Shown one piece after another: positions 4,713-20,380 of a stretch of DNA of 56,281 nucleotides (positions within the stretch are counted from its first letter, which is position 1; each line of letters starts with the position of its first letter). Source of the stretch: Chthoniobacteraceae bacterium (GTDB taxonomy: Bacteria; Verrucomicrobiota; Verrucomicrobiia; Chthoniobacterales; Chthoniobacteraceae); the NCBI GenBank assembly GCA_037190965.1, contig JBBCKI010000026.1, forward strand, positions 1 to 56,281, read 5' to 3'. Below the pieces are notes generated by a model, which was not told the origin of the DNA, made no database searches, and saw only the letters and a list, made by a program, of their open reading frames with translations. Made by a program: the position numbers and the translations under genes.

Positions 4713-5494
4713 TACCAGCTTCCTCCTGCTCCGCCTCCTCCGAAACTGCCGCCGCCGCCGCTGAAACCTCCTCCTCCCGAGCGGCCCGATCTTCCTCCGC
4801 CCCCGCCCCACCCCCCGCCGTAGTAAGTGGGCCCCTGGCTCGTGTAACCCCTTGAACCGTCCCCTCCTCCGGAACTCCCTCGGTTTGCAAGCCAGACGAT
4901 AAAGAAGAAGATCAGAAAGAAAAGAAGTGCCGCAGGCCAACTGTCTCCCCCGGAATCGTTGGCCGCTCCCTCCCGCGCGGTGCGGCCGGTCCCTTTGTAT
5001 TCCCCTTTTGCGGCGGCCATCATCGCATGGACTCCGGCTTCGAGACCGCCACTGTAGTCGCCTGCCTTGAAGCGTGGTTTAATGTCGTCTTCGATGATCC
5101 GGTGGGCCAGGAAATCGGGAATGGCCCCCTCAAGGCCGTACCCGACCTGGATGAACATCTTCCGGTCCTGCACGAAGACAAAGAGAATTGCACCGTTGTC
5201 CCGGCCCTTTTGGCCTGCGTGCCATGCCTGGGCGACGCGGACGGTGTAATCCTCAATCGAAGAGTCGCTCCGCATCTTCGGCTCGACCACGACGAGGATC
5301 TGGTTGGAGGTGGCGCGCTCAAACTGCTCCAACTCCGCGTTGAGGCGGGCGGCGACGTCGGGCCTGACCACCCCCGCGTCATCGGTAAAATACGCTTTCG
5401 GGGGCGGTGGGATGACCTCCGCGGCCCGAAGAGGGATCAGAAGAAAGGCAAAAAGACCTGCCAGAAAAAGCGCCACCTTCTGTGGAGCGTTCAT
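4712..5494 (-). CDS. TPM domain-containing protein (YgcG family) with Gly-rich C-terminus
   Basis: Signal peptide, GQKGRDNGAILFV, IQVGYGLEGAIPD, TM helix and GGGGSFGGGGAGGSW end. Confidence 0.92.
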   Translation of the reverse strand: MNAPQKVALFLAGLFAFLLIPLRAAEVIPPPPKAYFTDDAGVVRPDVAARLNAELEQFERATSNQILVVVEPKMRSDSSIEDYTVRVAQAWHAGQKGRDNGAILFVFVQDRKMFIQVGYGLEGAIPDFLAHRIIEDDIKPRFKAGDYSGGLEAGVHAMMAAAKGEYKGTGRTAREGAANDSGGDSWPAALLFFLIFFFIVWLANRGSSGGGDGSRGYTSQGPTYYGGGWGGGGGRSGRSGGGGFSGGGGSFGGGGAGGSW

Positions 5495-5496
5495 TT

Positions 5497-6159
5497 TTAC
5501 TGAATGGCTGGAGCGGTCGGGGCAGGGACGGCGGGCGCTGGCGAACCAAAGCCGAACTCCACATTCGGCGGGACGTTGGCTCCTTCGGTGGCGGTGAAGT
5601 ACGGTTTGGCAGGGAAGCCGAGCAGGGGAGCGATGAATACCATGGGAAACCTGCGGACGGCCGTGTTGTAGGTTCTGACCGCTTCGTTGAACCTGCCGCG
5701 TTCCACGGCAATCCGGTTCTCCGTCCCCTCCAACTGGGCTTGGAGCGCTTGAAAATTCGCGTTTGCCTTCAGTTCCGGATAACGCTCCACCACCACCAGG
5801 AGCCGGGAGAGCGACGAGGTTAACGCGCCCTGGGCCTGCTCGAATTCCTTGAGCTTCCCTGGGTCGGTGGGTGCTTTGGTGGGGTCTACCTGCACCTTAC
5901 CGACCGAAGCCCGCGCGTTGGTGATGTCCGTGAGGGTCGATTTTTCGAAATTGGCGGCTCCGGAGACGGTTTTAACGAGATTCGGAATGAGATCGGCGCG
6001 CCGTTGGTAAACGTTTTGTACTTGAGCCCATTGGGCGTCCACGTGTTGGGAGAGGTTCACCAACCGATTGTAGGCAGGAACGACGGTGAGAGCGCCAATG
6101 GCGGCAACGATGACCAGGACAACGAAGAATGCGGCGATACAGCCAAGGAATGGTTTCAT
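5497..6159 (-). CDS. lemA: LemA family protein
   Basis: N-terminal TM, YQRRADLIPNLV, ERYPELKAN, LEGTENRI; classic lemA-TPM-TPM operon. Confidence 0.95.
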   Translation of the reverse strand: MKPFLGCIAAFFVVLVIVAAIGALTVVPAYNRLVNLSQHVDAQWAQVQNVYQRRADLIPNLVKTVSGAANFEKSTLTDITNARASVGKVQVDPTKAPTDPGKLKEFEQAQGALTSSLSRLLVVVERYPELKANANFQALQAQLEGTENRIAVERGRFNEAVRTYNTAVRRFPMVFIAPLLGFPAKPYFTATEGANVPPNVEFGFGSPAPAVPAPTAPAIQ

Positions 6160-6417
6160 GGTGCTGGGAAATCGATCCCATTACTGATCGCGCAATCTTT
6201 GCCCTGTGGTCCCCTCCGATTGAGCAGCCTTTCCGAACACGAGAAATCAATAGACGAATCAAGAAATCCTTGCATAACTTACGGCTCATTTTTTCCGGCG
6301 AGGGGCTTCCTTTCGAGAAAGATGAGCCCGGCGCAGGGAGCCATGAAGGTTTCTGAAGCCTAAAGCACCCTGACGCACCCTGTAACCAGACCTTTTCACT
6401 CCTAAACCGAGCACTTT

Positions 6418-6753
6418 ATGACACATCACCTTACCGTTCTCCTCGCCCAAGCCTCACCCGCTCCGGAAGGCATGCCGGCCGGAAGCCCCCTCGGCGCCCT
6501 CGTTCCCTTCGTCCTGATCGCGGTGATTTTTTACTTCCTGATCATCCGCCCGCAACAGAAGCGGATCAAGGAACAGGCTGCCATGATCGCCTCCGTGAAA
6601 ACAGGGGACTCGGTCATCATGAACAGCGGCATTCACGGCATCGTGACCAACGTGAAGGACACCACGCTGATCGTCAAAGTCGCCGATAACGTGAAGCTTG
6701 AATTCGAGAAAGCGGCGGTCGCCTCCGTCGCCAAGGTTGCTTCCGAAGGATAG
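6418..6753 (+). CDS. yajC: Preprotein translocase subunit YajC
   Basis: IFYFLIIRPQQKR, GDSVI..SGIHG; directly upstream of secDF. Confidence 0.95.
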   Translation: MTHHLTVLLAQASPAPEGMPAGSPLGALVPFVLIAVIFYFLIIRPQQKRIKEQAAMIASVKTGDSVIMNSGIHGIVTNVKDTTLIVKVADNVKLEFEKAAVASVAKVASEG

Positions 6754-6804
6754 CTCTGGCGCTTTCCATTGTTTGCGTTAGTTTACCGTTCTTTTTAACA
6801 ATCC

Positions 6805-9138
6805 ATGAGTCCCGCGCTGACGTTCCTATCCGGCCTTCTGGCCCTCATTCTGTTCTGTTGGTATGTGGCCACTGATTCCTTGCGTCGCAAGAGGCTGGTG
6901 GGAACGATACTGACGCTCGTTATTCTGGCGATCTCCTTCCAGTCGATCTATCCGTACAAGGAGAAGATCCGGCTCGGGCTTGATTTGCAGGGCGGAACTT
7001 CGTTCCTTCTCCGCCTGGTCAAGGTGGAGGGGCAAACGGTGGATGCCCGCGTGCTGGAGCAGGCCGTGGAGGTCATCCGGAAGCGGATCGACAAATTCGG
7101 CGTTAGCGAGCCGGTCATCACGCCACAGGGGAGCGACCGCATTCTGGTCCAAATTCCCGGCATGGATGCCGAGAAGATCAACGAAGCCCGCGAGCAGCTT
7201 CAAAAGGTTGCCAAGCTGGAACTGAGGTTGGTTCACCCTCAGAGCCGGGAACTCGTTCCATTGATCGAATCAGGGCAGGCCCGCCTGCCTCACGGCTACT
7301 CAATCGAGGTCGAGAAGGATCGCAACCCCGAGGGGAAGGAAGTGCATCTCGAACGCCTTCTGGTCCGCTCCAAGGCGGATATCGAGGGAAGCGACGTGAA
7401 GGGCGGTTACCCGTTTGCGGATCATTCGGGATGGGGCGTCGGCCTCCAGTTCACTCCCAAGGGCGGGGAACTTTTCGGAAAGCTGACGGCGGCACACATT
7501 GGCGACCGTTTCGCCATTATGCTTGATGGTGAGGTGCAGAGCGCCCCGGTCATTCAGGGGGCCATCTACGGCGGGACCGCCTCCATCACCGGCAGATTCA
7601 CCGAAGCGCAGGCTCGGACTCTCGCCAGCGTGCTGGAGAACCCTCTTGCAGTGCCGGTGAAGATTGAGGAAGAGCGGAGCGCGTCCAGCACCCTTGGCGC
7701 GGAGGCGATTCGTAGCGGCGTCCTCGCGGGGATCGGCGGCTTTGCGGCCGTTCTCGTCTTCGTGATGATTTATTACAAAATGGCCGGGTTGATCGCGATG
7801 ATCGGCCTGATGGTCAACATCGTCGTCCTCCTCGGGGTGATGGCCATGTTCAATTTTGTGCTTACGTTGCCCGGTATCGCGGGCATCATCCTGACCATCG
7901 GTCTCGCGGTGGATGCCAACGTGCTCATCTTCGAACGGCTGCGTGAAGAACTTGCCACCGGCAAGTCATTCACCGCGGCGATCCAGAGCGCTTATTCCAA
8001 GGCATTCTCGGTCATCTTTGACGCCAACGTCACCACGCTGATCATGGCGGGTATTCTGTTCTGGCAGGCGACCGGGCCCGTGAAAGGGTTCGCCGTGACG
8101 CTGACCGTCGGCGTGATCGCCTCTGTCTTTACCGCGATGATCGTCGGGCGCACCTGCTTCGGCTGGGGCACAAGCATGGGCCTTAAGCGGGTCTCCATGC
8201 TTCACCTCATCCCCACGGGGACGAAGATCGACTTCTTAGGGAAGCGCAAGGCTTGGCTGATTGCTTCCACCGCTCTCATGCTGGCCGGTATTGCCGCCTT
8301 TGTGATCCGGGGTGAAAACAACTTCGGCATCGACTTCAAGGGAGGCGACCTCCTCGAGTTGGAGGTCAACAAAGACGTTTCGGAAACGCGTGTGCACGAT
8401 TCCTTGGCGGCTGCCGGGTTCCACGATTTTGCCGTTCAGAAGATTAATGCCGGAGGGGATCGCGAATATATCTCCATTCGCAGTCAGCTCGATACGGCCG
8501 ACAAGATTCAGGAACATCTCACCAAGACGATGCCCGAGGCCGGGTTCAAGGAACAGAAGCGGGACCGCGTCGGAAAAATCGTTGGCGGGGAACTGGCGAA
8601 GACCTCGCTCATCGCCCTTGGACTGGGAATTCTCGGCATCCTCTTCTTCGTGAGCGCGCGATTCGAGGTTGCGTTCGCCATCGGGGCGATCGTCGCCATG
8701 CTGCATGACATCGTCGTGACCATCGGCATGTTCGCACTCACCGGCAGGGAGCTTTCCCTGGTGATCATCGGCGCAATCCTGACCATCGCCGGTTATTCCA
8801 TCAACGACACCATCGTGATCTTCGACCGGATTCGCGAGAGTCTTCACAGCGGAAAGAAGGGGACGATCCAGGAGTTGATGAACACAGCCATCAACGAAAC
8901 GCTGTCCCGGACGATCCTCACCAGCGGCACGACCTTCCTGGCAGTGGCATCGCTCTATTTCTTCGGCGGTGCCGTGCTGAAAGACTTCGCATTCGCCATG
9001 ATGGTCGGCATCGTGGTCGGCACCTACTCCTCCATCTTCATCGCCTCCACGATCGTTCTCTGGTGGAGCCGCCACAACGAGCACAAGCTCGTCGCGGAAT
9101 TGAAGGGTAAGGGGACGGAAGCGACGGTGGAAGGGTAG
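6805..9138 (+). CDS. secDF: Fused protein translocase subunit SecDF
   Basis: LGLDLQGG, AVDANVLIFER (SecD part); FGIDFKGG, GYSINDTIVIFDRIRE (SecF part). Confidence 0.97.
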   Translation: MSPALTFLSGLLALILFCWYVATDSLRRKRLVGTILTLVILAISFQSIYPYKEKIRLGLDLQGGTSFLLRLVKVEGQTVDARVLEQAVEVIRKRIDKFGVSEPVITPQGSDRILVQIPGMDAEKINEAREQLQKVAKLELRLVHPQSRELVPLIESGQARLPHGYSIEVEKDRNPEGKEVHLERLLVRSKADIEGSDVKGGYPFADHSGWGVGLQFTPKGGELFGKLTAAHIGDRFAIMLDGEVQSAPVIQGAIYGGTASITGRFTEAQARTLASVLENPLAVPVKIEEERSASSTLGAEAIRSGVLAGIGGFAAVLVFVMIYYKMAGLIAMIGLMVNIVVLLGVMAMFNFVLTLPGIAGIILTIGLAVDANVLIFERLREELATGKSFTAAIQSAYSKAFSVIFDANVTTLIMAGILFWQATGPVKGFAVTLTVGVIASVFTAMIVGRTCFGWGTSMGLKRVSMLHLIPTGTKIDFLGKRKAWLIASTALMLAGIAAFVIRGENNFGIDFKGGDLLELEVNKDVSETRVHDSLAAAGFHDFAVQKINAGGDREYISIRSQLDTADKIQEHLTKTMPEAGFKEQKRDRVGKIVGGELAKTSLIALGLGILGILFFVSARFEVAFAIGAIVAMLHDIVVTIGMFALTGRELSLVIIGAILTIAGYSINDTIVIFDRIRESLHSGKKGTIQELMNTAINETLSRTILTSGTTFLAVASLYFFGGAVLKDFAFAMMVGIVVGTYSSIFIASTIVLWWSRHNEHKLVAELKGKGTEATVEG

Positions 9139-9188
9139 GCTGTTCTTTTTGCGATTAGAGAGGCGAGAGACGCCTCGCCTTCCGGATA

Positions 9189-9407
9189 CTCGTCCCAATC
9201 TCCAGATTGGGAACGCCGTTGTCCGCGAAACTCCAGTTTCGAAACCGTGCCTCGCGCACCAAGGCCCCCGCAAATAATGGGGCCTCGTCGCGGGGCATTT
9301 TCGGTAAGGCGTGCGGCTCTCGGACCTCCGAACGCGCACGAATCGAAGATTCGAAGATTCGAAGATTCGAAGACAGCGGCATTACCAATCTGGAGATTGG
9401 TAACGAG
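9189..9407. repeat. REPIN-like inverted doublet of family A palindromes, with an internal 8-bp tandem repeat
   Basis: ctcgtcccaatctccagattgggaacg at 9189-9215; inverted attaccaatctggagattggtaacgag at 9381-9407; (tcgaagat) x~4 at 9343-9373. Confidence 0.8.
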
Positions 9408-9454
9408 GAGACTCAAAATCGTTCCCGTGCCCTTCGATCATATCCAATATGCGA

Positions 9455-9470
9455 TGGCATAGTTCCTGCT
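9455..9470 (+). promoter_or_regulatory. Candidate sigma-54 (-24/-12) promoter of the PEP-CTERM gene
   Basis: TGGCATAGTTCCTGCT has GG-N10-GC spacing and lies 100 bp upstream of ATG 9571. Confidence 0.5.
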
Positions 9471-9570
9471 TTTGCTTGACGGATAGCCCCCTCCCGCTCC
9501 GAGAGGGGCTCCCATCACAAAGAACCTCATCCTCGGATACACTGTATCCCTGGCCTGTTACGGAAGAACT

Positions 9571-10573
9571 ATGCCCACTAGAACTACCAGGAAAACCATC
9601 ACCGCTTTTACTCTTCTGATGGGGATGATGCTCAGCGGGCCTGTTTACGGCGGTATCATTGCCGAAGACGACGCTGTTCCCGGCAAAATGGATGAAGGCG
9701 GCACACTCGCGGACCCTGCGCTTTATGTTGCCGGAAGCTCCGGAGCGGTTATCTTGGGGAATGGCTCCTTGGTTGTCACCGTAGGATCTCTCAATTCCTA
9801 TAACCAACTCACCATTCAGAACGGTTCAACCTTCACAAGTTGGTTTTCCTATATTGGGTTTGAAACGACCAGCGGCTTCAACTCCGTCACGGTCACGGGA
9901 GAGGGCTCGAATTTCCACAGCGACAGCTATGTGGACATCGGCACCAAGGGTTCCAACAACTCGGTGATCGTCGAAAACCGGGCGTCGATAACCAGCATAG
10001 GCGCTAGGATTGGTGATAGGGAGTCGGCAAGCAACAATTTCGCCATTATCCGTGGCACCGGCTCAACGTGGACAACCACCTGGGGAGGGTTTGTCATTGG
10101 AAATTTGGGACAATTCAACTCGTTGACCGTTGAAGACGGTGCATCGGTGACAACCACTTCCTATTTCTCGATTGGCTCGGGAGATAGCGGCTATTCCGAA
10201 CGGTGATCTGCTTCTAGATGCAAGTGATGACTTCCTGCGTCTTGACGGAGGGTTTTTTGCATGGCAGGGCAACCGCCTCTCGGAGGTAAGCGCCCTTATC
10301 GCAGGAGGCGCAATCCAGCTCTGGGATAGTGGGGAATGGATCAGCGCTTCGAGCGACGATCTCACCTTTTTGTTTTTCGCGACCGATGAGAGCGCATTCG
10401 GCTATACCGGATACGCCGACCTGGGAGGATATACCATTTTAAGCACAGTCGCCATCCCCGAACCCGGCACGTTGGGCCTGCTTGGAGGGGCTGTTCTCGC
10501 CGCAATGCCTCTTGTTTGTCGACGGCGGCGGAGGCAACGCTGCTTGGACGTTCCATTGCTCCACGACCTCTAA
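9571..10573 (+). pseudogene. PEP-CTERM surface protein with beta-strand repeats, split by a frameshift/deletion near 10190-10205
   Basis: ORF 9571-10206 has a signal peptide and G..G..NSLTV..G repeats. ORF 10172-10573 in another frame has GGFFAWQG...LGGYT...IPEPGT-TM-RRRRR. Together they align with the intact paralog 33233-34165. Confidence 0.8.
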
Positions 10574-10585
10574 ACTCGTTTTAAG

Positions 10586-10617
10586 CTCGTTCCCAATCTC
10601 TCCAGATTGGGAACGAG
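10586..10617. repeat. Family A REP palindrome (perfect 14-bp stem hairpin)
   Basis: ctcgttcccaatct-ctcc-agattgggaacgag. Confidence 0.8.
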
Positions 10618-10690
10618 GCAAAGCGCACGCCCTTCTCGTCGACACGCCCCAAACAACGCTTGATCAAAGGCGATTAGAAAAAACGGAAAG

Positions 10691-10853
10691 CGGAGCCTGC
10701 TCTCGCCGAGAGCGCGGGATTGTTTGAAGAGTCGCGTTTTGCATCCATCCCCGCCGGACAGGCTGCTGCTTGTTGGAAATGCGTCGCTTATGAAGCCACG
10801 GGAGCCGATACCCGCGCTAGACGGCGCGAGCGGGCCACCGGTGCTGCCGCACC
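10691..10853 (-). repeat. REPIN-like element, family B, copy 2 (reverse orientation)
   Basis: Reverse complement aligns with 1392-1536 and 28865-29024 (e.g. gctctcgccgagagcgcgggat ... cccgcgctagacggcgcgagcgggccaccggtgctgccgcacc). Confidence 0.8.
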
Positions 10854-10863
10854 ATTTTACCCC

Positions 10864-10933
10864 CTCGTTCCCAATCTCCAGATTGGGAACGCCGCTGTCC
10901 GCGAAACTCCAGTTTCGAAACCGGTCTCGCGCA
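10864..10933 (+). repeat. Family A REP with conserved flank
   Basis: ctcgttcccaatctccagattgggaacgccgctgtccgcgaaactccagtttcgaaaccg is nearly identical to 9189-9247. Confidence 0.85.
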
Positions 10934-10959
10934 TCTAAGCCAACCGCTTGCGCGTTTCG

Positions 10960-12033
10960 CTAGAGTTCGACCACTTCGCCGCTGCGCATTGATTCGTCAG
11001 CCGCAAGAACAATCCGGAGGCTTCCGAGGGCGGAATTCCAATGGTCCGTGAGGTCGAGATCTTCAAGAATCGCCGCAGCGAGGAAGGCCTGTTCCCGCGC
11101 GCAGAGCCCGTCGTGATCGGGTTCGTCGGTCATCTCCACCACGCGATCTTTTTCGACGAAGCGCCCGTTACTATCGAGTGCCGCGCGGTGGACGAGGATC
11201 GAATCGGTTTTCGTGTGTGAATTGACATCCGAGGAGTCCTTCAGGGTGGACTGCGCGGCCGCAATACTGGCGCTGCCGAGCGGCCCCACCACATCTTTGA
11301 CGAAGAACGCCGTCTGGCTCATCATCGGGCCCCAGCCCGCCTCGTACCAGCCCACGGAGCCATCCTCGAAGGTCACTTGTAATTGCCCGTAGTTCACCAT
11401 TCCTGCTGGGAGCTCCTCCGTCAGGCGAGCCCCGATGGCATGAACGCGAACCGGGCGGGATTGGGTCATCCGGCACATCACCTCCACGTAGTGGACGCCG
11501 CAATCCACGATGGGCGACATTGAGCTCATGATGTTCTTGTGCGTCAGCCAGTCCGCGCCCGAGCTTTGCTGGTTGAGATTCATCCGCATCACCAGCGGTT
11601 TACCCAACTGGCGTGCTTCTTCGACAAAGCGAGTCCATGCGGGATGTTGTTGAAGGATATAGCCGACCACCAGCTTCCGGTTCTTCTCGCGGCACAATGC
11701 GATTAGGCGTTCGGCTTCGGCAAGCGTGTTTGCCATCGGCTTTTCGAGAAAAACGTGGCATCCCGCCCGTAGCGCCGCTTCGGCATATTGCGCGTGGGTG
11801 TCGGGGTAGGTGCTGATACAGACCGCGTCGGGCTTTGTCGCTTCCAGCGCCGAGCAATAGTCGGAGAACTCGGGATAGTTGGCCCCCAGGCGTTGGTTGA
11901 GCCGAGTGCGTGTGTCCGGAGTTCTGCTGACCAAGCCGACAATCTCGAAGGCTTCGGATTGATGGTAGGCGAGAGCGTGGGAAGCGCCCATGTGTCCACA
12001 GCCTGCAACCAAAACGCGAATGGGGTGATTCAT
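10960..12033 (-). CDS. Gfo/Idh/MocA family oxidoreductase
   Basis: GCGHMG Rossmann motif, HVFLEKP, DCGVHY, GWYEAGWGP. Confidence 0.9.
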   Translation of the reverse strand: MNHPIRVLVAGCGHMGASHALAYHQSEAFEIVGLVSRTPDTRTRLNQRLGANYPEFSDYCSALEATKPDAVCISTYPDTHAQYAEAALRAGCHVFLEKPMANTLAEAERLIALCREKNRKLVVGYILQQHPAWTRFVEEARQLGKPLVMRMNLNQQSSGADWLTHKNIMSSMSPIVDCGVHYVEVMCRMTQSRPVRVHAIGARLTEELPAGMVNYGQLQVTFEDGSVGWYEAGWGPMMSQTAFFVKDVVGPLGSASIAAAQSTLKDSSDVNSHTKTDSILVHRAALDSNGRFVEKDRVVEMTDEPDHDGLCAREQAFLAAAILEDLDLTDHWNSALGSLRIVLAADESMRSGEVVEL

Positions 12034-12066
12034 AGTCGTTACCGTATTCGGAAAAAATGAGGGCGG

Positions 12067-12975
12067 CTACACCAGAGTTTTAACCAAGGTCTCCCGATCT
12101 CCGGGAAGGAAGTCCATCGGCGGCACCTCGGGCATGGTGTAGGCTCCCGGGCGGAGACGCGTTGCCGCGCGGGCACATGAGACCATGATCTGCGCAGTGA
12201 GCGCGGGGTTGTTGATCTTCATGCGAAACTCGAAGAGCTGGTTGTGGGTCTTGCCGCTTGCCCCCTTGCGCTCCATCACAACGCCGTGCCCCATGTCCTT
12301 CAAGGCATCGATGCTGGGGACAGCCGTGACCACCGTTTGGTCGTTGACGAAATAATCGTCGCTCTTGATGGCGTGCTCCACCTCGGCGAAATTTGCGCCC
12401 GGCTCCAACTCGACATAGACCATGCGGCGGTGCACGCCCGTGCCGGTGGGGATCGTCATCGAGAGGGCATCGCGAACGCCTGCCTTCGATTTTGCGCAGA
12501 CGGAATGCCCCATGCTCATGCCGGGGCCAAAATTGGTGTAGGTCAATCCCTTGGGGGCCATCGCCAGCAGCAGGGTGCGGAGGACGGAGTCACTCCCCGG
12601 ATCCCAGCCTGAGGAGATGATGGCCACGCTCCGGTGTTCCCGCGCCACGGCTCCAAGGGTCTGGCGCAGATCCCAGAGCTTCTGCCCGTGGATGTCGAAG
12701 CTGTCGACGGTATGGATGCCGCGGGAGAGGTAGAGGGGGGCGGTCTCGGGAATGCTGCGGGTGGGGCCGCAGAGCAACGCGACATCGACCTTCCCGAGGT
12801 CGGCCACGTTTGAAGTCACCGTGACGTCGGCCAGTTCAGGCGGTTTGCATTCTCCGACGGACCCGGCTCGCCGCACGACTCCCGCAACCTCCATATCAGG
12901 AGCTTCCTCGACTGCTTCGACCGCAAACCGGCCGATGTTTCCGTAACCGACGATGGCGACTTTGATTTTTTGCAC
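12067..12975 (-). CDS. ddh: meso-diaminopimelate D-dehydrogenase
   Basis: VGYGNIG, TVDSFDIH, GWDPGSDS, TNFGPGMSMGHS, DMGHGV, NNPALT; GTG start. Confidence 0.95.
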   Translation of the reverse strand: MQKIKVAIVGYGNIGRFAVEAVEEAPDMEVAGVVRRAGSVGECKPPELADVTVTSNVADLGKVDVALLCGPTRSIPETAPLYLSRGIHTVDSFDIHGQKLWDLRQTLGAVAREHRSVAIISSGWDPGSDSVLRTLLLAMAPKGLTYTNFGPGMSMGHSVCAKSKAGVRDALSMTIPTGTGVHRRMVYVELEPGANFAEVEHAIKSDDYFVNDQTVVTAVPSIDALKDMGHGVVMERKGASGKTHNQLFEFRMKINNPALTAQIMVSCARAATRLRPGAYTMPEVPPMDFLPGDRETLVKTLV

Positions 12976-13136
12976 GGCCGAAAGGATTCAAAATCCGGGA
13001 AAAGTGACAAGGACAGAACGCATTTTTTCCGGGTTTAGCGTCCGCTTTCTCTGAGGCTCAGACTTTTCGTAAAAAAATTTGAAAAACATCTTGAGTTCCC
13101 GGGAATCCAGTGCAAATTAGCCGCTCTCTTTTCCAA

Positions 13137-13212
<76 letters not shown>

Positions 13213-13221
13213 CTTTTTCCC

Positions 13222-13992
13222 TTATTTTTCGCATCTCGCGATTTTTCTCAAGAGAGCCTTCAAAAACAGCGGATCTCTTGAGGGATGAACAGAAAGTAAA
13301 CGCGCCACCATTCCGGTGAGATATGCGGCCGCGAAGCTGCTTCCCGTCATGATACGATGAGTTCCATCTTTCCAGGGAACTTTGCGGTTGGATCCCGGCG
13401 CGGTGAACTCCACGACTCGTCCCTGGCAACGAGTAATTTCCGATTCAGCGGTCCTGCTTGCATCCACGCCGAGAACGCTCGGGAAATGGGCGGGCCATTC
13501 CGGTTGGCGGGGGTCGTGACTCCCGGAAGCCGCAATCACGTGGACACCGCAAAGCTCCGCTCGATCCACCCATGCCTTGTAAAGAGGCAAGTGTCCCAAA
13601 ATCGAGCAGCCGAAACTGCAGTTGAGCACATCGTAACCCAGTTCCATGGCGCGATTGGCGGCTAAAGAAACTTGAGCCGTCCGCGCTCCGAGATTGGGCC
13701 CGAGGATACGCAAGCTCCCTATCTCCGCTTCCGGTGCCAGGCTCCAGATGATCCCGGCTATGGCGGTTCCATGGCCGTACAGATCCCGCCCATTTCCGGG
13801 CTGGAAAGGATCCTGGTGGTCGACCTCCAATACAAAATCATCCCGCAGCTTGCGCCCGAGGAAATCGGGATGCCCAATCTCAACGCCCGAATCAAGCACG
13901 GCGATTTTGACTCCCCGGCCGCGCCCCTGATCCATCGCCTTTGCGCCCTCTTCAGGAGAAATCCAACGGCTCAATCCAGTCACCTCCCTCAA
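13222..13992 (-). CDS. Minimal S8 (subtilisin-like) serine peptidase
   Basis: Catalytic triad motifs AVLDSG, GHGTAIAG, TGSSFAA; no signal peptide or pro-domain; exact start uncertain. Confidence 0.88.
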   Translation of the reverse strand: MREVTGLSRWISPEEGAKAMDQGRGRGVKIAVLDSGVEIGHPDFLGRKLRDDFVLEVDHQDPFQPGNGRDLYGHGTAIAGIIWSLAPEAEIGSLRILGPNLGARTAQVSLAANRAMELGYDVLNCSFGCSILGHLPLYKAWVDRAELCGVHVIAASGSHDPRQPEWPAHFPSVLGVDASRTAESEITRCQGRVVEFTAPGSNRKVPWKDGTHRIMTGSSFAAAYLTGMVARLLSVHPSRDPLFLKALLRKIARCEK

Positions 13993-14539
13993 TGGTTAAA
14001 TCCAGGGATCCTTGCGATGGGGAATCGATGTGATGCTGCAGACGATGCAGCGCTTCTTCAATAATCGACAAGTCCCTTGAAGAAAACGACTCAGGATCCG
14101 GCAAAGAAAGAGAACTCTTGAGGCGCACGCAAGAAACAACCCCTTGGGTTGCCCCGTGAAAACGAAGCGGAACCGCGATCATTGCACAAGTCACCTTCTC
14201 CAGGTAGCCGTCAAGGGTACGGTCCTGATTTCTATTTTCGTAAACCGAATTTTCACACAGCCCTTGCTCCGACACGCAAACCAGACTGATGAGGCCGGAA
14301 TCCAGCGGCTGGCAATGACGTCCGACAAAACGGCTGCCAGTGGTACCTGAATTCCAGACCGGCACTAGCATTCTCTGGGCTTCATCCAGAAGCCAAAGTG
14401 TTCCTTCGTCCGCCCTTACCGCCGAGAACGAGGCAGCGAGAAAGTCGTGTGTGCCTTCGCGAAGGCAAACTTCAACGATGCTTTGGGAAATGCTTATCCC
14501 TCGCGCTTCCAGGAGCTCTAAAACTTGGTTCAGTTTCAA
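13952..14539 (-). CDS. Stand-alone GAF domain protein
   Basis: ADEGTLWLLDE...LV, QPLDSGLISLVC, CAMIAVPL..G...GVVSCV, FSSRDL..I pattern of GAF folds; TTG start. Confidence 0.75.
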   Translation of the reverse strand: MKLNQVLELLEARGISISQSIVEVCLREGTHDFLAASFSAVRADEGTLWLLDEAQRMLVPVWNSGTTGSRFVGRHCQPLDSGLISLVCVSEQGLCENSVYENRNQDRTLDGYLEKVTCAMIAVPLRFHGATQGVVSCVRLKSSLSLPDPESFSSRDLSIIEEALHRLQHHIDSPSQGSLDLTIEGGDWIEPLDFS

Positions 14540-14613
14540 TCTATTATCCCTGGAAGTAAGTTTGACTTATTCAATGCCGAGTAAATCTCAACGCGGGCCG
14601 ATATATCCTTCCA

Positions 14614-17193
14614 TCAAGATAAATCAATCGAAATTTCCATGATCCCTTGCCTCCCAAGACGTTCAACTTCATGGGAAATGTCGTCGAAAAAGGCATCGCC
14701 CTTGGTTTGACGTGCATTTCTTTCGAGCTCCAGCAAGGAGGCTTTCAAACGAATGGATGGTTGCTGTTTAAGCTGGCTTATCAGGATTTTTGAAGAGGCA
14801 AGCAGGCGGGCAGACAATTCAAATCGCCCAAAACAATCGGCAACTTTAGCAAAACAGACGTACAATCCCGGAAGGGCGGCAATCAGCTGCATCTCTCGAT
14901 GAATGACGAGGCTTTCACTATAATAGTGGCATGCCGTTTCCAGGTTACCCAAAACAAATTCCAGGTAACCACGATTTTGCAAAACAAAGGCATAAGTGGC
15001 CCGGTTCCCGGAATCTTTGAGGAGATCAACGCTCCGTTCCAAACAGGGGCGCGCTTTTGTCAAATCACCGGCCTCCAGGTAAGAGCAGCCCAACATGGTC
15101 AGCGCCGCGGCTAAATTGTGTGTTCGTCCGAGCCGCTCATAAATAGCGGCACACCGGAGATGATGTCTTTGAGCGACTTTGTAAGCACCTTGTCGAAATG
15201 CAATTTGGCCCAGATTATGAAGCGCACCGGCCGCATCAGCCTCTTCGCCCATTTTCTCGTAAAACAAAAGCGCCCTTTCGAAGACGACGCGGGCACGCCA
15301 CAGGCGTCCAAGCGTCAAGTCCAACAAACCAGCGGCATGAAGAGCACGGCCAACGACGTCCTCTTCACGAGGGTCCGAGCAGATGGGCACGCGATTAAAC
15401 CAGCGACGGTTTTCGTAAGCGCCGCCCCTTAGAAGCCATAGCGAATGAAGCGCCGTCGCCAAACGCAACCGTCGTATCGGCGTCGAAGCGTTTGCAAGAA
15501 CCTGCTGGAAGTTCAAATGCTCTTCCTCCAGTCGATCCAGGCGCAATTGATCGAGTGCCTCCTGGTTTTGCGCTTCCAGCTTATAAGCCAGGAGGGAAAA
15601 ATACCTCCAGTGCCGATCCAAAGCGTCGCCAATCGAGTCGCCGAGCTGGTCAGAGGCATACTGCCGGATGGACTCCAACATACGAAAACGCAGGCTTTCC
15701 AGCCCGTCTTCGACAATCAGGAGAGAACAGAAACGAAGAGTTTGGATGGCTGCCTGCGTTTCCTCTGCGCAACCGCCCCCCGCGACATGGATGGCCGCAT
15801 CCATGGTAAAACCGCCCCGGAAAACCGAAAGCGCAGCCAGAACTTCCCGCACCTTCTGGGGAAGCGCGTGGAAGCTCCAACTCACCGCGGCTTCGAGGCT
15901 GTGATGTCGTTCGGGATGTTCGCTCCGTTGATCCTGCAACAAAGCAAAACGACCCTTGATCTCCTGAAAGATTTGCTGAGGTGTAAGCACCGACATCCGC
16001 GCCGCGGCAAGTTCGATTGCCAAGGGAATCCCCTCAAGCAACGCACAAAGCTTATCAATGCCGGAACGGCTTGCGGCGGTAAGCTTAAAATCCGGGCGGA
16101 CAGCGCTGGCTCGTTGGACGAACAGTTCGCCGCTGGCGGACAGATGACGGGAAGAATCCCCGCCTCCATGAAACGCCAAAGGAGCGACAGGAAACTCCCG
16201 TTCTCCCGGCAACCCCAAGATCATTCGCGAGGTCACGAGACACTTGAGCCCCGGAATTTGGCCCAATAAATTTTGGACATGGGCAGCCGCTTCCGGCAGG
16301 AGTTGCTCCATATTATCCAGGACCAACAAGGCAGGGCTGGAACCAAATTCTTCGCGGAGTTGAGCCAAAGGGGTGAGGTGTGGCTCGAAGGGAATTCGCA
16401 AGGCACTGCGGATGGCATCCATCATGCGACTGGGCTCGTTGATCTCCGCCAACGAAACAAAAGTGACCGCATGGTCGAATAGCCCCAAGGCGTCTCGTGC
16501 CGCTTCGATCGAGAGCCGTGTTTTTCCGATGCCACCGGGCCCGGTGAGAGCAACCAGCCGGGCTTCGGTATTGTCCGGATCGAGCAATTTCCCGAGGGAC
16601 ATTCGTTCGGCATCGCGCCCGACGATCGGCGTTTGCATCGCCGGCAGATTGTGGGATCGCGCGTGTTCAGCCCGGAGTGGACGAAAAACAAGGCCCTCCC
16701 GCCAGAGGAGTTCACTGACCTCCTCGGCACGCTCAAAACCGCGCAAACGATAGACGCCCATTCTCCTCAAGGGCACCGAAGGCGCATTCCCCAAAGCTGA
16801 AACGGCTCCCTCGGAACAAACAATCTGCCCCCCTTGGGTCCCGGCGAGAAGACGCGCCGCAAGATTCATTGCGAGGCCACGATACTGGCCATCCCTGAAC
16901 TCTGCTTCGCCGGTGTGGAGAGCCATGCGCACCTTGAGCGCTCCGCTCTCCGGAGGCCACTCCTCAATGCTCAGGCTCCGTTGAGCTTCAATCGCGAACG
17001 CCGCAGCGTCATCAGTTTTCAAGAAGGCCAGAAGCAAACCGTCTCCGTTTTCCTGAAATTCACGACCGCCATGATCTGCCAGATGGCGACGCAAGATCTC
17101 GAAATGTCGCGCGATCGCACGGCTATACCCGGCTGGAGCCCGGGCCGCCAACTGGGTTGATCCCTCGACATCCGTAAACAGAAGCGCAATCAC
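14614..17193 (-). CDS. Class III nucleotide cyclase - STAND (NB-ARC/AP-ATPase-like) - TPR protein
   Basis: LLFTDVEGST, NGDG, RMALHTG, NLAAR (cyclase); GPGGIGKT, LLVLDNMEQ, LVTSR, GIPLAIELAA (STAND); C-terminal TPR-like repeats. Start reassigned to GTG 17193, overlapping the upstream TGA. Confidence 0.88.
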   Translation of the reverse strand: MIALLFTDVEGSTQLAARAPAGYSRAIARHFEILRRHLADHGGREFQENGDGLLLAFLKTDDAAAFAIEAQRSLSIEEWPPESGALKVRMALHTGEAEFRDGQYRGLAMNLAARLLAGTQGGQIVCSEGAVSALGNAPSVPLRRMGVYRLRGFERAEEVSELLWREGLVFRPLRAEHARSHNLPAMQTPIVGRDAERMSLGKLLDPDNTEARLVALTGPGGIGKTRLSIEAARDALGLFDHAVTFVSLAEINEPSRMMDAIRSALRIPFEPHLTPLAQLREEFGSSPALLVLDNMEQLLPEAAAHVQNLLGQIPGLKCLVTSRMILGLPGEREFPVAPLAFHGGGDSSRHLSASGELFVQRASAVRPDFKLTAASRSGIDKLCALLEGIPLAIELAAARMSVLTPQQIFQEIKGRFALLQDQRSEHPERHHSLEAAVSWSFHALPQKVREVLAALSVFRGGFTMDAAIHVAGGGCAEETQAAIQTLRFCSLLIVEDGLESLRFRMLESIRQYASDQLGDSIGDALDRHWRYFSLLAYKLEAQNQEALDQLRLDRLEEEHLNFQQVLANASTPIRRLRLATALHSLWLLRGGAYENRRWFNRVPICSDPREEDVVGRALHAAGLLDLTLGRLWRARVVFERALLFYEKMGEEADAAGALHNLGQIAFRQGAYKVAQRHHLRCAAIYERLGRTHNLAAALTMLGCSYLEAGDLTKARPCLERSVDLLKDSGNRATYAFVLQNRGYLEFVLGNLETACHYYSESLVIHREMQLIAALPGLYVCFAKVADCFGRFELSARLLASSKILISQLKQQPSIRLKASLLELERNARQTKGDAFFDDISHEVERLGRQGIMEISIDLS

Positions 17194-18110
17194 AGCTTCA
17201 TCGCAGCCTTGGTCAAAAAAATCTGACGACGATGTTTCAGCAAAAGCAAAGCGCCGACGCCGAAGATCATCAAGGAGGTTTCCGAAGGTTCCGGGATTGG
17301 GGCGACATCGAGATAGCTTGTCCCCAACCTCAACTCGTCGAATATCCACGGCGCATCCGCGCCATTGGTAAACACTCCAACACGCGAAAACTGCGGAGGC
17401 AGACTTAAGGATGCGATCGCCGCCTGATATTCAGCGGGTGGCATATTCACTCCCGGCGGGGGATCGATGTAGAGCGTTACTGATTTTCCTGGCTCAATAT
17501 GAGTCACGATAAAGTAGGTTTTACCAACGGTCATCGTCCCTTCGGCCACGACGAGCGTGTTCTGGACATTCGAACGAATCCCAAAATTTGAGGATCCCCG
17601 TGAAACCCCCATCGACAAGGAGTAGCCGGTTGTGAGAGGCATCAGGGCAACATATCCCTCAAAATCGGAAACGGAACTCCCCGAGGGAATCGAGTCGAGC
17701 CTGATCAAAAAGCTAAACCAGAGAGGGGCGTCGCTCGACACCGTCACGGGATTGATGCGCCGAACACTTTGATGCGAATCGTCGTCGCCTCCGGCAACGT
17801 GTCCCAGAACCGCATTGCCCGAGACGGCAAGGTTGGAAAAGCTCAACCCTCCGGCGTTAATTTGGTCAGGATAAAATGGAGACCTCCAGGTCCCATTCGT
17901 ACCCGCCACAAAGCCGGTTCCTCCAGCCAGTCCGTTGATGCTTTGATTGCTTACGTATTCGAACGACTCCTCAAACAAAAGGGCGGCAGTCGCCTCCGAG
18001 CGATGGAGACCGATCAGGACAACAGCTGCCAGGACGGAATAAAGGCCGCTCTGGAACCATGAGCCGAGGCAGGTTTTCTTTCGGGCCGGGACAGAAAAGG
18101 AAGAATTCAT
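17190..18110 (-). CDS. PEP-CTERM sorting domain protein (lectin-like beta-sandwich)
   Basis: Signal-like N-terminus, LLFEESFEY...GGTGF, FDELRLGTSY..V, IPEPSET-TM-KHRR; ATG 18110 follows a GAGGTGG SD-like sequence (alternative start 18149). Confidence 0.85.
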   Translation of the reverse strand: MNSSFSVPARKKTCLGSWFQSGLYSVLAAVVLIGLHRSEATAALLFEESFEYVSNQSINGLAGGTGFVAGTNGTWRSPFYPDQINAGGLSFSNLAVSGNAVLGHVAGGDDDSHQSVRRINPVTVSSDAPLWFSFLIRLDSIPSGSSVSDFEGYVALMPLTTGYSLSMGVSRGSSNFGIRSNVQNTLVVAEGTMTVGKTYFIVTHIEPGKSVTLYIDPPPGVNMPPAEYQAAIASLSLPPQFSRVGVFTNGADAPWIFDELRLGTSYLDVAPIPEPSETSLMIFGVGALLLLKHRRQIFLTKAAMKL

Positions 18111-18145
18111 TGATAAAACCACCTCACGAAAAATACCCATCGCTC

Positions 18146-18949
18146 TCACAGTACCTCGTTCATCAGATTGACCCGCCCGACATGAAAGTCGAAGAATAGG
18201 GCATTGCGATATAAGCGATGCGCCATTTTCTTCGGAAGCCGAGTGCGGTATGAAGATTTTTCACGTTCAAGAATCGGCTCCGACTGGTCGATATCCTTCA
18301 GAGCCCATGTCTTTGATCGGGCGTACTGGCCTTGATCGTCGACGATGTCATCAAGCATCGAGAGCTTCATGGGAGGCTCGTCCTGAGGCTTGCCATTTTT
18401 TAGAACGGCATCGCGCAGGATCCCTCCAGCCAAATTGTAACGGTAATCGGCGTAATAGGTGTTCGGATAGCCAAAGGGCGCCTGAGGGCCAACCCGATTG
18501 TTCATTGCTACCTCCGTATTGATCATGAAGACCGGGGTTTCCTCCGGTCGGGTGAGCACCGCCCGCCGGTTGGCGGGACAATTGAACACATCGCCCCCTT
18601 TCTTCGAACGGGTTGGAATCACAGCGAGATATTTCTGCAAATGAGTCGCCAACACCTTGGGGTCTCCTCCACCACTAACCTCCCAATAGGGAAGCTGACC
18701 GACGAGAAGAGGCCCCGGAAGGTGGTCATTGTGATCGCCCGCATAAACGAGAATACCGGCCCCAATCTGGCGAAGATTCGAAATGCATTGGAGATCATCC
18801 CGGATCTCCTGGGAGCGGCCCAGCACGGGTAAAGCCAGCGCCACCAGAACAGAGACAATCAGCGTCGCCACCAAAACTTCGACGATGGTAAAGGCCGATG
18901 TCGCTCTTTCATTCATGCATTTTGAATCCGCCTCACGTATCAAACCCAT
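18146..18949 (-). CDS. Prepilin-type N-terminal cleavage/methylation protein, H-X9-DG family (DF variant)
   Basis: AFTIVEVLVA...LALPV, CISNLRQIG, C-terminal HRLYRNALFFDFHV; start may be ATG 18916. Confidence 0.88.
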   Translation of the reverse strand: MGLIREADSKCMNERATSAFTIVEVLVATLIVSVLVALALPVLGRSQEIRDDLQCISNLRQIGAGILVYAGDHNDHLPGPLLVGQLPYWEVSGGGDPKVLATHLQKYLAVIPTRSKKGGDVFNCPANRRAVLTRPEETPVFMINTEVAMNNRVGPQAPFGYPNTYYADYRYNLAGGILRDAVLKNGKPQDEPPMKLSMLDDIVDDQGQYARSKTWALKDIDQSEPILEREKSSYRTRLPKKMAHRLYRNALFFDFHVGRVNLMNEVL

Positions 18950-19389
18950 CGAACCGTAGCAACGATCATTTGCATAACCATCTGCCGATCAGACCTTAAC
19001 AATCAGAAAACCATGGATTGAATGAGGAGGGTTGGAACCCGGATTTTATGCTTGCTGGGAGGTGTTACTTAATAATAAATCTTCGTAACCCGCTGTATTG
19101 AAGTGGGTTAGGGATTTAAAATCCTCCCTCGACTCGACGGGACGTTCTCTGTTCAGGGTTCCAATAAGGCCCGGATCCCACGGCAGAAAATTTTTGATCA
19201 TTTTTTGCAAGTTTTTCAGAACCGCGCGTATTCCCCGTTGAATGCAGGGAAGATTTTCCCCCCTCGTTCGAAAAAAGTGATTTTCATAGGGGCGCCACGG
19301 ATCAGATCGATGGAACGACTGTCAGGGATGAAGAACGGCGAGAACGGATTTAGGAACCTAGGGGAAGAATACTACCAAGGGTGGTAACG

Positions 19390-19422
19390 ATTGATGGGGG
19401 TGATACCTTCACCCCCATCAAT
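19390..19422. other. Perfect 14-bp inverted repeat in the intergenic region upstream of serB
   Basis: attgatgggggtga-tacct-tcacccccatcaat. Confidence 0.7.
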
Positions 19423-19522
19423 TTAGGCCCAAACCCGAAATCGGTGCGAACAATCTGGGCAGCCTCTGTGATTGCCCCTTTCGAAATTTCACAGAAGCCT
19501 CTAAAGTCGCTCTTTCTGTTCT

Positions 19523-20380
19523 ATGGCTTCCATCCTTACTCTCGTCAATACGGGCGGACTTGATCCCGCTACGGAAAAAAAAGCGACCTCTTTTCTGCAA
19601 TCCCAAGCGACCGAGGTGTTGGAAGTCCGGCATTTTCCCAATTCCATCGATGTTACATTCTCCGGCCCCTGCGCCAATCTGGAGAAGGAAGCTGAAAAAT
19701 GGGGGGTCGACTTTGCGGTCCAACCGGCGGAATTCCGGCATAAGAAGCTCCTCGTCTCAGACATGGAGATGACGCTGGTTCGCAATGAATTTCTCGACGA
19801 CATCGCGGAACTCGCGGGCGTCGGCGAGGAAGTTCAAAAAATTACGGCCCTCGCCATGAATGGGCAGATCGATTTTGCAGGCTCTCTCCGGGCGCGCCTG
19901 GCTCTTCTCAAGCAACAGCCCGTCGCTCTGCTGGAGAAGGCGTGGGAGGGGATGGTTTTAATGCCCGGGGCCGAAACCTTGTTTGCCACCCTTCGGAACA
20001 ATGGGATTCGGACGGTCATTGTTTCCGGCGGGTTTACGTTTTTCGTTTCGCGAATCCAAAAGATCCTCGGCGCCGATGCCGCCATCGCGAATGATCTCGA
20101 TATCGAGGGCGATCGGTTGACCGGTCACCCGAAGGAGCCAATCCTGGGCAAGGAGACCAAGCAGCAGATTCTGGAGACCGAAGCTGCGGCACTCGGGATC
20201 GATCTCAGGGAAGCAATGGCGGTGGGGGACGGCGCGAACGACCTTCCCATGCTGCTACGCGCCGGATTGGGAGCCGCGTATCACGCCAAGCCCAGCGTGG
20301 CGGCTGCCGCAAAATACCGCATCAAGCATTCCGATCTTACGGCTCTTCTCTCCTTTGCAGGGATTCACTCCTGCCACTGA
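19523..20380 (+). CDS. serB: Phosphoserine phosphatase SerB (HAD family)
   Basis: [49 protein letters not shown]. Confidence 0.9.

Follow-up and report, generated by a model that had tools for sequence, protein, structure and literature searches.

Introduction

The closest described precedent for the module analysed here is CalpL-CalpT-CalpS, in which a type III CRISPR messenger acts via a protease on an anti-sigma factor, whose cleavage releases an extracytoplasmic function (ECF)-like sigma factor (10.1101/2024.05.08.593097). The DNA under study (the window) is the whole 56,281-nt contig JBBCKI010000026.1 (contig C26 in our numbering) of the Chthoniobacteraceae bacterium assembly GCA_037190965.1 (Verrucomicrobiota). 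The subject is a gene pair for a stand-alone GAF protein and a small S8 subtilase, preceded here by a gene for a class III cyclase fused to a signal transduction ATPase with numerous domains (STAND) and TPR repeats. By analogy, the module appears to work like CalpL-CalpT-CalpS with unrelated parts, and it is not a member of that system. Common to both is the predicted logic of messenger, protease, anti-sigma factor and sigma factor, with an anti-sigma-like protein (fold support moderate, Z about 5) plus an ECF-like sigma linked to the protease. The window, on the other hand, encodes an S8 subtilase and not a Lon protease (no SAVED or Lon family match among its proteins), a stand-alone GAF protein in trans instead of a fused SAVED domain, and a class III cyclase-STAND protein instead of Cas10/cA4; gating is predicted to rely on a plugged active site rather than on filament formation, and no CRISPR link was seen in the neighbours sampled.

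Single parts of the module also have described relatives. Avs proteins are STAND-TPR sensors, and Pycsar combines a class III cyclase with a separate receptor. The window protein shares with Avs a STAND NTPase with C-terminal TPRs (Walker A/B, GxP, TPR_12), but its N-terminus is a cyclase with no other fused effector, it matches no Avs model and it lacks an island context. In distinction to Pycsar, its cyclase has no PycC match and the putative receptor is a GAF, not a cyclic nucleotide monophosphate (cNMP)-binding domain; the genome's three cNMP-binding domains are encoded on contigs other than the window's, with no adjacent PycTIR/PycTM-type effector. Class I anti-sigma/ECF pairs (RsiW-SigW, MucA-AlgU, RseA-SigE) use an intramembrane protease cascade, whereas the putative protease here is a cytoplasmic subtilase. 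They resemble our case in the three-helix anti-sigma-like domain (predicted, with modest fold scores, in our case), a divergent or co-oriented ECF-like sigma gene and a TGCAA...CGTA promoter on the partner gene; the protein in question, encoded on contig C63, differs in being soluble, without membrane span or Zn ligands, and in having an N-terminal helix and a motif loop. The GAF domains of CyaB2, Lcd1, PDE6C and PDE10A are the best sequence and fold matches of the window GAF and share its conserved G, D and T positions; the window GAF, however, is stand-alone and coupled to a protease instead of being fused to a cyclase or phosphodiesterase, carries Glu in place of Arg in beta-1 and retains NKFDE only in degenerate form. 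Mycobacterial Rv0386 and Rv2488c likewise combine a class III cyclase, an AP-type STAND ATPase and TPRs, with Gln at the first base-selecting site; the window protein lacks their LuxR helix-turn-helix (HTH), has Gln, not Asn, at the second site and is coupled to prepilin, PEP-CTERM, GAF and S8 genes (10.1101/2024.03.06.583649). QhpE, a cytoplasmic single-turnover leader peptidase (PMC7876137), is a small cytoplasmic S8 enzyme as well, but the window S8 scores 92.5 bits against a cut-off of 165 in the QhpE model (NF049966, E 2e-26, its best NCBIfam match), has no qhp genes nearby and has an obligate GAF partner.

Results

The conserved core of the module is the combination of GAF and S8 genes, which form an obligate pair. 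In the window, both lie on the minus strand with overlapping reading frames: the stand-alone GAF protein, placed by sequence and fold in a cAMP/cGMP-binding clade, at 13952..14539, and the cytoplasmic subtilase at 13222..13992. A GTDB scan with the GAF alignment gave 79 loci (the Verrucomicrobiota set), and S8 follows GAF directly in 79/79 of them, with a 4-nt overlap in 51/79 and a spacing of -28 to +46 nt in 78/79. A metagenome scan with actinobacterial GAFs confirmed 235 loci, the best 80 of which constitute our actinobacterial-type set; here the order is reversed, S8 preceding GAF in 65/66 loci with at least 300 nt of upstream sequence. The two GAF sets are homologous (probability 96.8%). 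In a plasmid search, members of this S8 subfamily were found in Gemmatirosa, Miltoncostaea and Streptomyces; a GAF gene follows every one of them, and they match the S8 profile at 1e-54 to 1e-67, whereas other subtilases in these records do no better than 1e-26. The conserved neighbourhood of GAF and S8 homologues that an earlier note on this DNA had anticipated is thus borne out in both sets. Phylum-wide, the GAF occurs in 2/401 Verrucomicrobiota genomes. Related S8 proteins are present in 5/151 Gemmatimonadota genomes, four of these loci lacking a GAF and lying behind an ABC transporter; such small S8 genes without GAF, coupled to an ABC transporter, were seen in four Gemmatimonadota-group genomes (L194, L196 and L197, at about 6600-10600, and L195). 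The GAF-S8 module is real and conserved, and it is not a named system in the literature covered. No account of it was found there, most subscription papers lying outside the search, and the main text of an ECF reclassification paper, whose group neighbourhoods are given in supplements, has 0 mentions of GAF, cyclase, peptidase or Verrucomicrobia (PMC7826278).

The S8 protein (Pfam E 7.5e-22) has the catalytic triad D34/H74/S219, invariant in 75/75 aligned homologues, so that the intact D/H/S triad read from the sequence before stands. A ribosome-binding-site-like GGAGG and the alignment point to TTG 13971 as the likely start, giving 249 aa. Neither a signal peptide nor a propeptide was detected among the S8s: 25-49 residues precede the catalytic Asp in 75/75, and a hydrophobic N-terminus was found in 0/75. 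The calcium-site-A loop is missing, and the best PDB matches are 266-aa subtilisin BPN' variants, aligned gap-free after HGT, which we take to be the calcium-loop deletions that fold without a propeptide. With this resemblance to a propeptide-independent subtilisin, the enzyme would need another off-switch. No longer, fused forms of the S8 (449-2000 aa) appeared at E 1e-20, which is weak evidence.

A complex of the two proteins would provide such a switch. ESMFold2 scored the GAF-S8 pair at 0.92, 0.92 and 0.91 versus 0.02 for the best control; the mark used for a complex is reached by 116/157 solved pairs and 2/215 mismatched pairs. The model runs share at least 93% of contacts, with partner pLDDT of at least 82. 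In the predicted interface, S8 residues H74 and S219, strand 126-128 and residues 155-158 face GAF loop 85-98, with S219 touching Q92/G93, which means that the suspected contact between GAF and S8 is modelled right at the active site. Q92 is kept in 72/75 GAFs. The residue after it is Pro in 44/75 GAFs and in 43/51 actinobacterial GAFs; Pro at that position normally blocks cleavage, and its frequency suggests that the loop is a pseudosubstrate. On this basis we consider it very probable that the GAF binds the protease.

The GAF protein consists of a GAF domain alone, as the earlier note had stated: its AlphaFold model (pLDDT 89) contains one GAF fold only, and the long proteins among the profile matches are generic multi-GAF proteins. 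The Pfam GAF_2 match is under the cut-off (E 3e-4); a PDB profile search returned the GAFs of CyaB2 (4e-17), Lcd1 (9e-10), PDE6C and PDE10A, and Lcd1-cAMP ranked first in Foldseek. The invariant residues G82, D110 and T117 fall on conserved positions of CyaB2, presumably those of the pocket. Class III cyclases of several architectures occur in 14/79 Verrucomicrobiota loci (7 with the present STAND clade; others are a zinc-ribbon-cyclase-STAND-TPR gene right after S8 in L086, CHASE2-cyclases and receiver-cyclases) and cNMP-binding domains in 12/79, the corresponding figures for the actinobacterial-type loci being 6/80 and 41/80; several of these cyclase- or cNMP-bearing loci are syntenic kin. 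The family of stand-alone GAFs is large, with 4733 matches among 8000 candidates scored with a Streptomyces member as query.

The tightest partners of the pair were overlooked in the earlier note. Clustering of neighbours in the Verrucomicrobiota set yielded a small gene (75-85 aa) in 40/79 loci and a sigma factor gene in 33/79, placed convergent with S8 or co-oriented upstream of GAF; one or both are present in 26/54 loci with full flanks, and all five components occur together in L034, L036, L044 and L046. In the genome under study they are found on contig C63, the ECF-like sigma at 49633-50307 (matches to TIGR03001 and sigma70-ECF, both under cut-off) and the small, 75-aa anti-sigma-like protein, assigned by fold matches, at 50415-50642. 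Among 151 family genomes, S8 and sigma occur together in 47, S8 alone in 3, sigma alone in 2 and neither in 99, so that 47/52 genomes with either carry both, often on different contigs; since the family genomes are kin, such counts overstate independence. Co-occurrence with S8 has a Jaccard index of 0.90 for sigma versus 0.62 for the cyclase-STAND gene. A sigma gene also lies upstream of S8-GAF in 26/37 actinobacterial-type loci with sufficient flank.

In the model of the small protein, a helix is followed by a loop of low confidence and then by a bundle of three helices. The top matches of residues 27-75 are RsiW (Z 5.2, root-mean-square deviation 1.9, 49 aligned) and MucA (Z 5.1), and RslA, PupR, RseA and RskA bring the anti-sigma chains in the top 13 rows to six; the best Foldseek E-value is 1.0, and a zf-HC2 cluster of the Atlas appears at 0.79, which we take as a lead only. 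The exposed loop, the part modelled with the lowest confidence, carries an E-V-x-G-[RKH] motif in 31/38 small proteins versus 98/20000 background windows, and a [DE]V[EQ][GA]H motif recurs in short open reading frames (ORFs) of 54/80 actinobacterial-type loci, including aroma-sacti peptides. As the motif is shared by otherwise unrelated partners of one S8 subfamily, it is best read as the recognition site of the protease. In 14/14 close loci examined, a TGCAA-N16-CGTA promoter motif precedes the small gene by 7-17 nt. The strict motif has three sites in the genome, namely before the small gene (C63:50377), at window position 19204 and on contig C23, with 3 sites at the fitted spacing versus 0-2 at seven other spacings. 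A loose promoter matrix was rejected as unspecific, with 109 matches to the genome and 143 to its reversed sequence. For the sigma/anti-sigma step, what the computation shows is the fold, the loop motif, the co-occurrence and the promoter motif.

Several actinobacterial-type arrangements were noted alongside. In L108 (2795-9349), L116, L119, L126 and L129, genes for a radical SAM protein, a heme-oxygenase-like protein, an aroma-sacti peptide, a cyclase-STAND-TPR protein, S8 and GAF form one operon, often beside a BTAD-NB-ARC regulator. L139, L142, L144, L155 and about 25 similar loci line up genes for a cNMP-binding protein, an ECF sigma, an 84-aa NHLP-like protein, S8 and GAF, accompanied by a convergent DVE[GA]H repeat peptide, an MFS-cNMP transporter and a cNMP-binding protein. 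A related theme has been described in peptide-processing systems that combine AP-ATPase-TPR proteins with a zincin peptidase, in some cases with a link to cNMP sensing; they contain no GAF-S8 (PMC7159879).

The cyclase gene (14614..17193, minus strand) is an optional partner. Its longest ORF begins at 17349, but we prefer GTG 17193, the start chosen in the earlier note, where a 4-nt overlap joins the gene to the stop of the upstream PEP-CTERM gene; this start gives 859 aa, to which residue numbers refer. Guanylate_cyc of Pfam scored 21.3 bits with the protein as query (cut-off 21.9) and, above the cut-off, 24.7 bits in a second search; AAA_16/NB-ARC and TPR_12 were the further domains and no HTH family was found by Pfam, in agreement with the cyclase-STAND-TPR architecture without DNA-binding HTH assigned before. 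The class III catalytic set is intact (metal-binding Asp8 and Asp51, transition-state Asn110 and Arg114), and so are the STAND motifs (Walker A 218-225, Walker B 289-294, GxP). The two base-selecting sites depart from the canonical pattern, with Gln47 and Gln103 at the positions of K101 and D157, the adenine selectors of Ma1120; canonical adenylyl cyclases have Lys and Asp/Thr (PMC4215837), neither of which is present in the window cyclase. In one mycobacterial protein of the cyclase-STAND type, a Gln/Asn pair allows dual ATP/GTP activity (10.1101/2024.03.06.583649). In a quick, midpoint-rooted tree of 28 cyclase proteins (20 of 65 family matches plus 8), from which we claim no donor, non-canonical rows came from S8-bearing genomes in 17/17 cases and canonical Lys/Asp rows from genomes without S8 in 7/11; this distribution favours a functional tie of the clade with S8.

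This cyclase lies upstream of GAF-S8 in only 7/61 Verrucomicrobiota loci with at least 4.5 kb of upstream sequence, plus one partial locus, which does not support three genes as a fixed unit. The association with cyclase-STAND genes is nevertheless recurrent: no fewer than three separate settings, represented by Terrimicrobiaceae-type loci, by L086 and by Streptomyces-type loci, have a cyclase-STAND-TPR gene next to GAF and S8. A distinct, canonical cyclase-STAND clade directly precedes S8-GAF in the five radical SAM loci named above, and matching cyclase C-terminal tails were found in seven more short loci. As a separate observation, S8-GAF or GAF-S8 stands beside TPR-CHAT, caspase and CHASE2-cyclase genes in L106 (Gemmatirosa plasmid, 5068-19871), L085 and L096. 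In six further loci (L211-L216), the clade of the window cyclase-STAND gene has no adjacent GAF-S8, the next genes being one for a secreted or lipoprotein-like protein of 210-250 aa and one of the PEP-CTERM family.

The three co-oriented minus-strand genes of the earlier note are all present, but the unit is larger: they are the last of a five-gene operon that begins with a gene for a prepilin-type N-terminal methylation/DUF1559-like protein (18146..18949, minus strand; Pfam/NCBIfam matches) and a PEP-CTERM gene (17190..18149, minus strand), the latter translationally coupled to the cyclase gene. The prepilin/PEP-CTERM and PEP-CTERM/cyclase junctions are 4-nt overlaps, and 74 bp separate cyclase and GAF. 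In the named relatives (Terrimicrobiaceae/Chthoniobacterales, Verrucomicrobiota), this cyclase is always accompanied by prepilin, PEP-CTERM and secreted-protein genes, the last between cyclase and GAF in 7/7; this secreted-protein gene is missing from the window genome. The PEP-CTERM family is found beside the cyclase clade whether GAF-S8 is present or not. By tblastn, no paralogue of cyclase, GAF or S8 was found elsewhere in the genome. A second, degenerate cyclase-like protein was detected with our own profile, so that the Pfam-based impression of an only cyclase is not strict; at C62:46211-49864, a Ser/Thr-kinase-like gene is followed by one for a membrane protein with a cyclase-like domain, apparently without the first metal Asp.

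The tRNA gene next to S8 had been taken as an island marker and the circuit as a candidate for anti-phage defence, and neither idea was upheld. The S8 stop does lie 9 bp from the CCA of the convergent tRNA-Phe(GAA) gene (13137..13212, plus strand), as reported. However, a tRNA within 2 kb of S8 was found in 0/79 relatives, 12-20-mers from the tRNA 3' end occur once in the assembly (73 contigs), which speaks against an attachment-site (att) duplication, and none of the 10 integrase matches in the assembly is on the window contig. PADLOC gave no Avs or Pycsar match for the window proteins, only generic ones (TPR, E 0.003). In a sample of neighbour proteins (142 of the 201 chosen, drawn from 35 loci and cut at 450 aa), 9/142 had PADLOC matches, all to generic domains, so that the suggested enrichment in defence islands was not seen; no Cas match was found in this sample, a whole-genome search for cas10 not being part of the analysis. 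In viral contigs, 54 loci reached at best 30-31% full-length identity and none was orthologue-like; no RNA holder appeared either. Neighbours are mostly housekeeping genes (lpxC/lpxA, rnpA/yidC), and the module is kept in 25/29 genomes of one genus. GC content at third codon positions (GC3) is 0.54-0.62 for the five operon genes and the C63 pair versus a genome median of 0.70, and module parts were found in 0/5 congeners (65-96% completeness), in keeping with horizontal acquisition or with loss from the congeners; congener synteny revealed no demonstrable empty insertion site, flanks being scattered and one contig ending at the tRNA. Defence is a possible trigger, without positive support.

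Discussion

Taken together, we propose a ligand-gated proteolytic relay controlling an ECF sigma factor, with a cNMP/GAF-gated subtilase, cleavage of an anti-sigma factor and an ECF response as its stages; as a complete chain this is still tentative, falling a little short of an even chance. GAF and the propeptide-less S8 would be made together (their coupling is evident from the gene arrangement, the binding is modelled, and inhibition we infer), and GAF loop V89-S90-E91-Q92|G93 would sit in the S8 active site as a pseudosubstrate. The GAF would bind a 3',5'-cyclic nucleotide, cAMP or cGMP, as suggested by its relatives and by the recurrent cyclase and cNMP-binding neighbours; such a ligand seems fairly likely to us. 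Because the pocket adjoins the protease-binding loop, cNMP binding could release S8. A cue sensed by the TPRs might lead to STAND oligomerization, cyclase activation and cNMP synthesis; the co-transcribed cyclase is the most likely source here, though the odds that it really feeds the GAF are about even, and other cyclase types may fill this slot elsewhere. The freed S8 would then cut the E-V-x-G-[RKH] loop of the 75-aa C63 protein, a substrate role that we regard as slightly favoured, and the released ECF-like sigma would transcribe from TGCAA-N16-CGTA promoters, including that of the anti-sigma gene as feedback. The broader generalization is considerably more doubtful: that the GAF is a cNMP-released pseudosubstrate inhibitor of a subtilase, following the logic of protein kinase A, and a portable switch in at least three phyla, supplied by interchangeable cyclases, here an NLR-like STAND-TPR cyclase, and connected by a single short motif, [DE]-V-x-[GA]-[HRK], with anti-sigma factors of Verrucomicrobiota and with small peptides of Actinomycetota.

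Several observations weigh against the relay. Subtilisins with a loop in the cleft are very common among solved structures, so that the model score may partly reflect memorized structures; the loop pose could be that of a substrate, and Q92 is followed by Gly instead of Pro in the window GAF. The oxyanion-hole position of the window S8, on which the earlier note was silent, is Ser158, whereas 55/75 homologues have Asn. NKFDE and an adenine-contacting Arg are features of PDE/CyaB-type cNMP-binding GAFs. In the present family, Glu45 (63/75) occupies the site of the CyaB2 Arg, and NKFDE is degenerate (F in 75/75, K in 50/75, D in 40/75, N and E absent); the ligand may therefore be cGMP or something else, and the original assumption of cAMP/cGMP binding is supported by the nearest sequence and fold relatives, which bind cNMP, and weakened by these substitutions. 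The product of the cyclase is likewise uncertain, as neither canonical adenine selector is kept. No cyclase is seen within the flanks covered in 65/79 Verrucomicrobiota loci, and the 151 family genomes comprise 50 with S8, 55 with cyclase-STAND, 40 with both, 10 with S8 only and 15 with cyclase only: cyclase-STAND tracks S8 moderately, and the steady neighbour of its clade is the PEP-CTERM gene, which 7/9 non-adjacent clade members (loci fetched) keep without GAF-S8. As to the output, the anti-sigma Z-scores (3.4-5.2) are under the tool's caution line for helical bundles, the small protein has no Pfam, NCBIfam or meaningful PDB sequence match, and in actinobacterial-type loci the motif sits on separate small peptides, not on the sigma's partner.

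A rival reading is that the module serves peptide maturation, with a QhpE-like S8 acting on leader or repeat peptides that carry [DE]-V-x-[GA]-[HRK], the GAF serving as chaperone or propeptide substitute, sigma merely controlling expression, and the cyclase-STAND gene being just a neighbour that belongs to the prepilin/PEP-CTERM operon. QhpE is, albeit below cut-off, the best NCBIfam match of S8, and genes near the actinobacterial-type pairs encode DVE[GA]H repeat peptides plus an MFS-cNMP transporter, or else radical SAM and heme-oxygenase-like proteins together with an aroma-sacti peptide; moreover, the promoter motif precedes a secreted gene heading GAF-S8 in L041 and L046, and the faithfulness of the cyclase clade to its PEP-CTERM neighbour away from GAF-S8 is readily accommodated. 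What sets this explanation back is that the sole motif-bearing partner found in Verrucomicrobiota is fused to an anti-sigma-like fold, that the most frequent neighbour clusters there include no recurrent separate precursor or exporter, and that a plain chaperone needs neither cNMP-type pocket residues nor repeated cyclase/cNMP-binding neighbours. We consider this account rather less likely than the relay.

The relay could also have lost its force in this particular genome: S8 might be a stoichiometric binder, the cyclase might synthesize cNMP barely or not at all, and the module, separated from its sigma pair, may be decaying. The oxyanion Asn is replaced in 20/75 S8s, in a clade including the window's, the non-canonical cyclase sites vary freely inside their clade, the secreted-protein gene of the relatives is missing, and the sigma pair lies on another contig in a genome in whose five congeners no part was found. 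We judge a weakened or non-catalytic copy improbable: all frames are open, the S8 and cyclase (D/D/N/R) catalytic residues are intact, both module halves and two strong promoter sites are kept, Asn loss is common to a whole clade and hence not private decay, and a Gln/Asn pair goes with dual ATP/GTP activity in the mycobacterial protein cited above. Finally, the self-contained three-gene anti-phage system of the earlier note, placed in a tRNA island, in which the STAND-TPR protein would sense a phage protein and make cNMP and a GAF-activated protease would kill or arrest the cell, may draw on the STAND-TPR architecture, low GC3 and absence from congeners, TPR-CHAT and caspase genes flanking the pair in Gemmatirosa and L096, and the antiviral nature of CalpL-T-S itself (10.1101/2024.05.08.593097), but is very improbable given the co-occurring sigma and anti-sigma-like genes, the lack of Avs/Pycsar model matches, att duplication, integrases on the contig and conserved tRNA adjacency, the housekeeping neighbourhood and the stable retention within a genus.

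A cAMP/cGMP-gated protease that combines a GAF with a subtilase was not encountered in the literature covered. If the proposed relay holds true, a very large family of stand-alone GAF proteins that lack annotation would gain a function, and there would be an explanation of what keeps a cytoplasmic subtilase without propeptide switched off. Cyclase-STAND-TPR proteins without HTH would then also have an output, and relays of messenger, protease and anti-sigma factor would reach beyond CRISPR. A protease that is switched by cNMP and recognizes a short motif would be of use as a tool, and the model is directly testable with four small soluble proteins.

Additional Observations

The window copy of the promoter motif (19204..19231, plus strand), the best genome-wide match, points away from the operon. 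Downstream of it follow a putative 25-codon ORF (19310-19387, plus strand) and a 15-bp hairpin (19389..19423, plus strand; -26.5 kcal/mol), the candidate end of a transcript of about 190 nt; the region 19204-19423, which has no Rfam match (tRNA being the only one in the window), possibly gives rise to a short sigma-dependent transcript. In at least seven related loci, a similar promoter site faces away from GAF into a region without a consistent ORF. In L034 (9247-11667), a second, secreted S8 with a P-domain directly follows the small S8 and is preceded by the sigma promoter motif. A YkuD L,D-transpeptidase gene comes after S8 in 10 Verrucomicrobiales-type loci (L069, L084, L088-L090, L093, L095, L097, L098 and L101). 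S8 and the small gene are convergent neighbours in relatives; here, each half of the split module lies against an RNA gene: the end of the small gene is convergent with tmRNA (C63:50832-51186; L105, about 7833-8187), as S8 is with tRNA-Phe. Elsewhere in the window (9571-10573, plus strand), what looks like a single gene with a frameshift is read as two ORFs in different frames, one secreted and repeat-like (9571-10206), the other of PEP-CTERM type (10172-10573).

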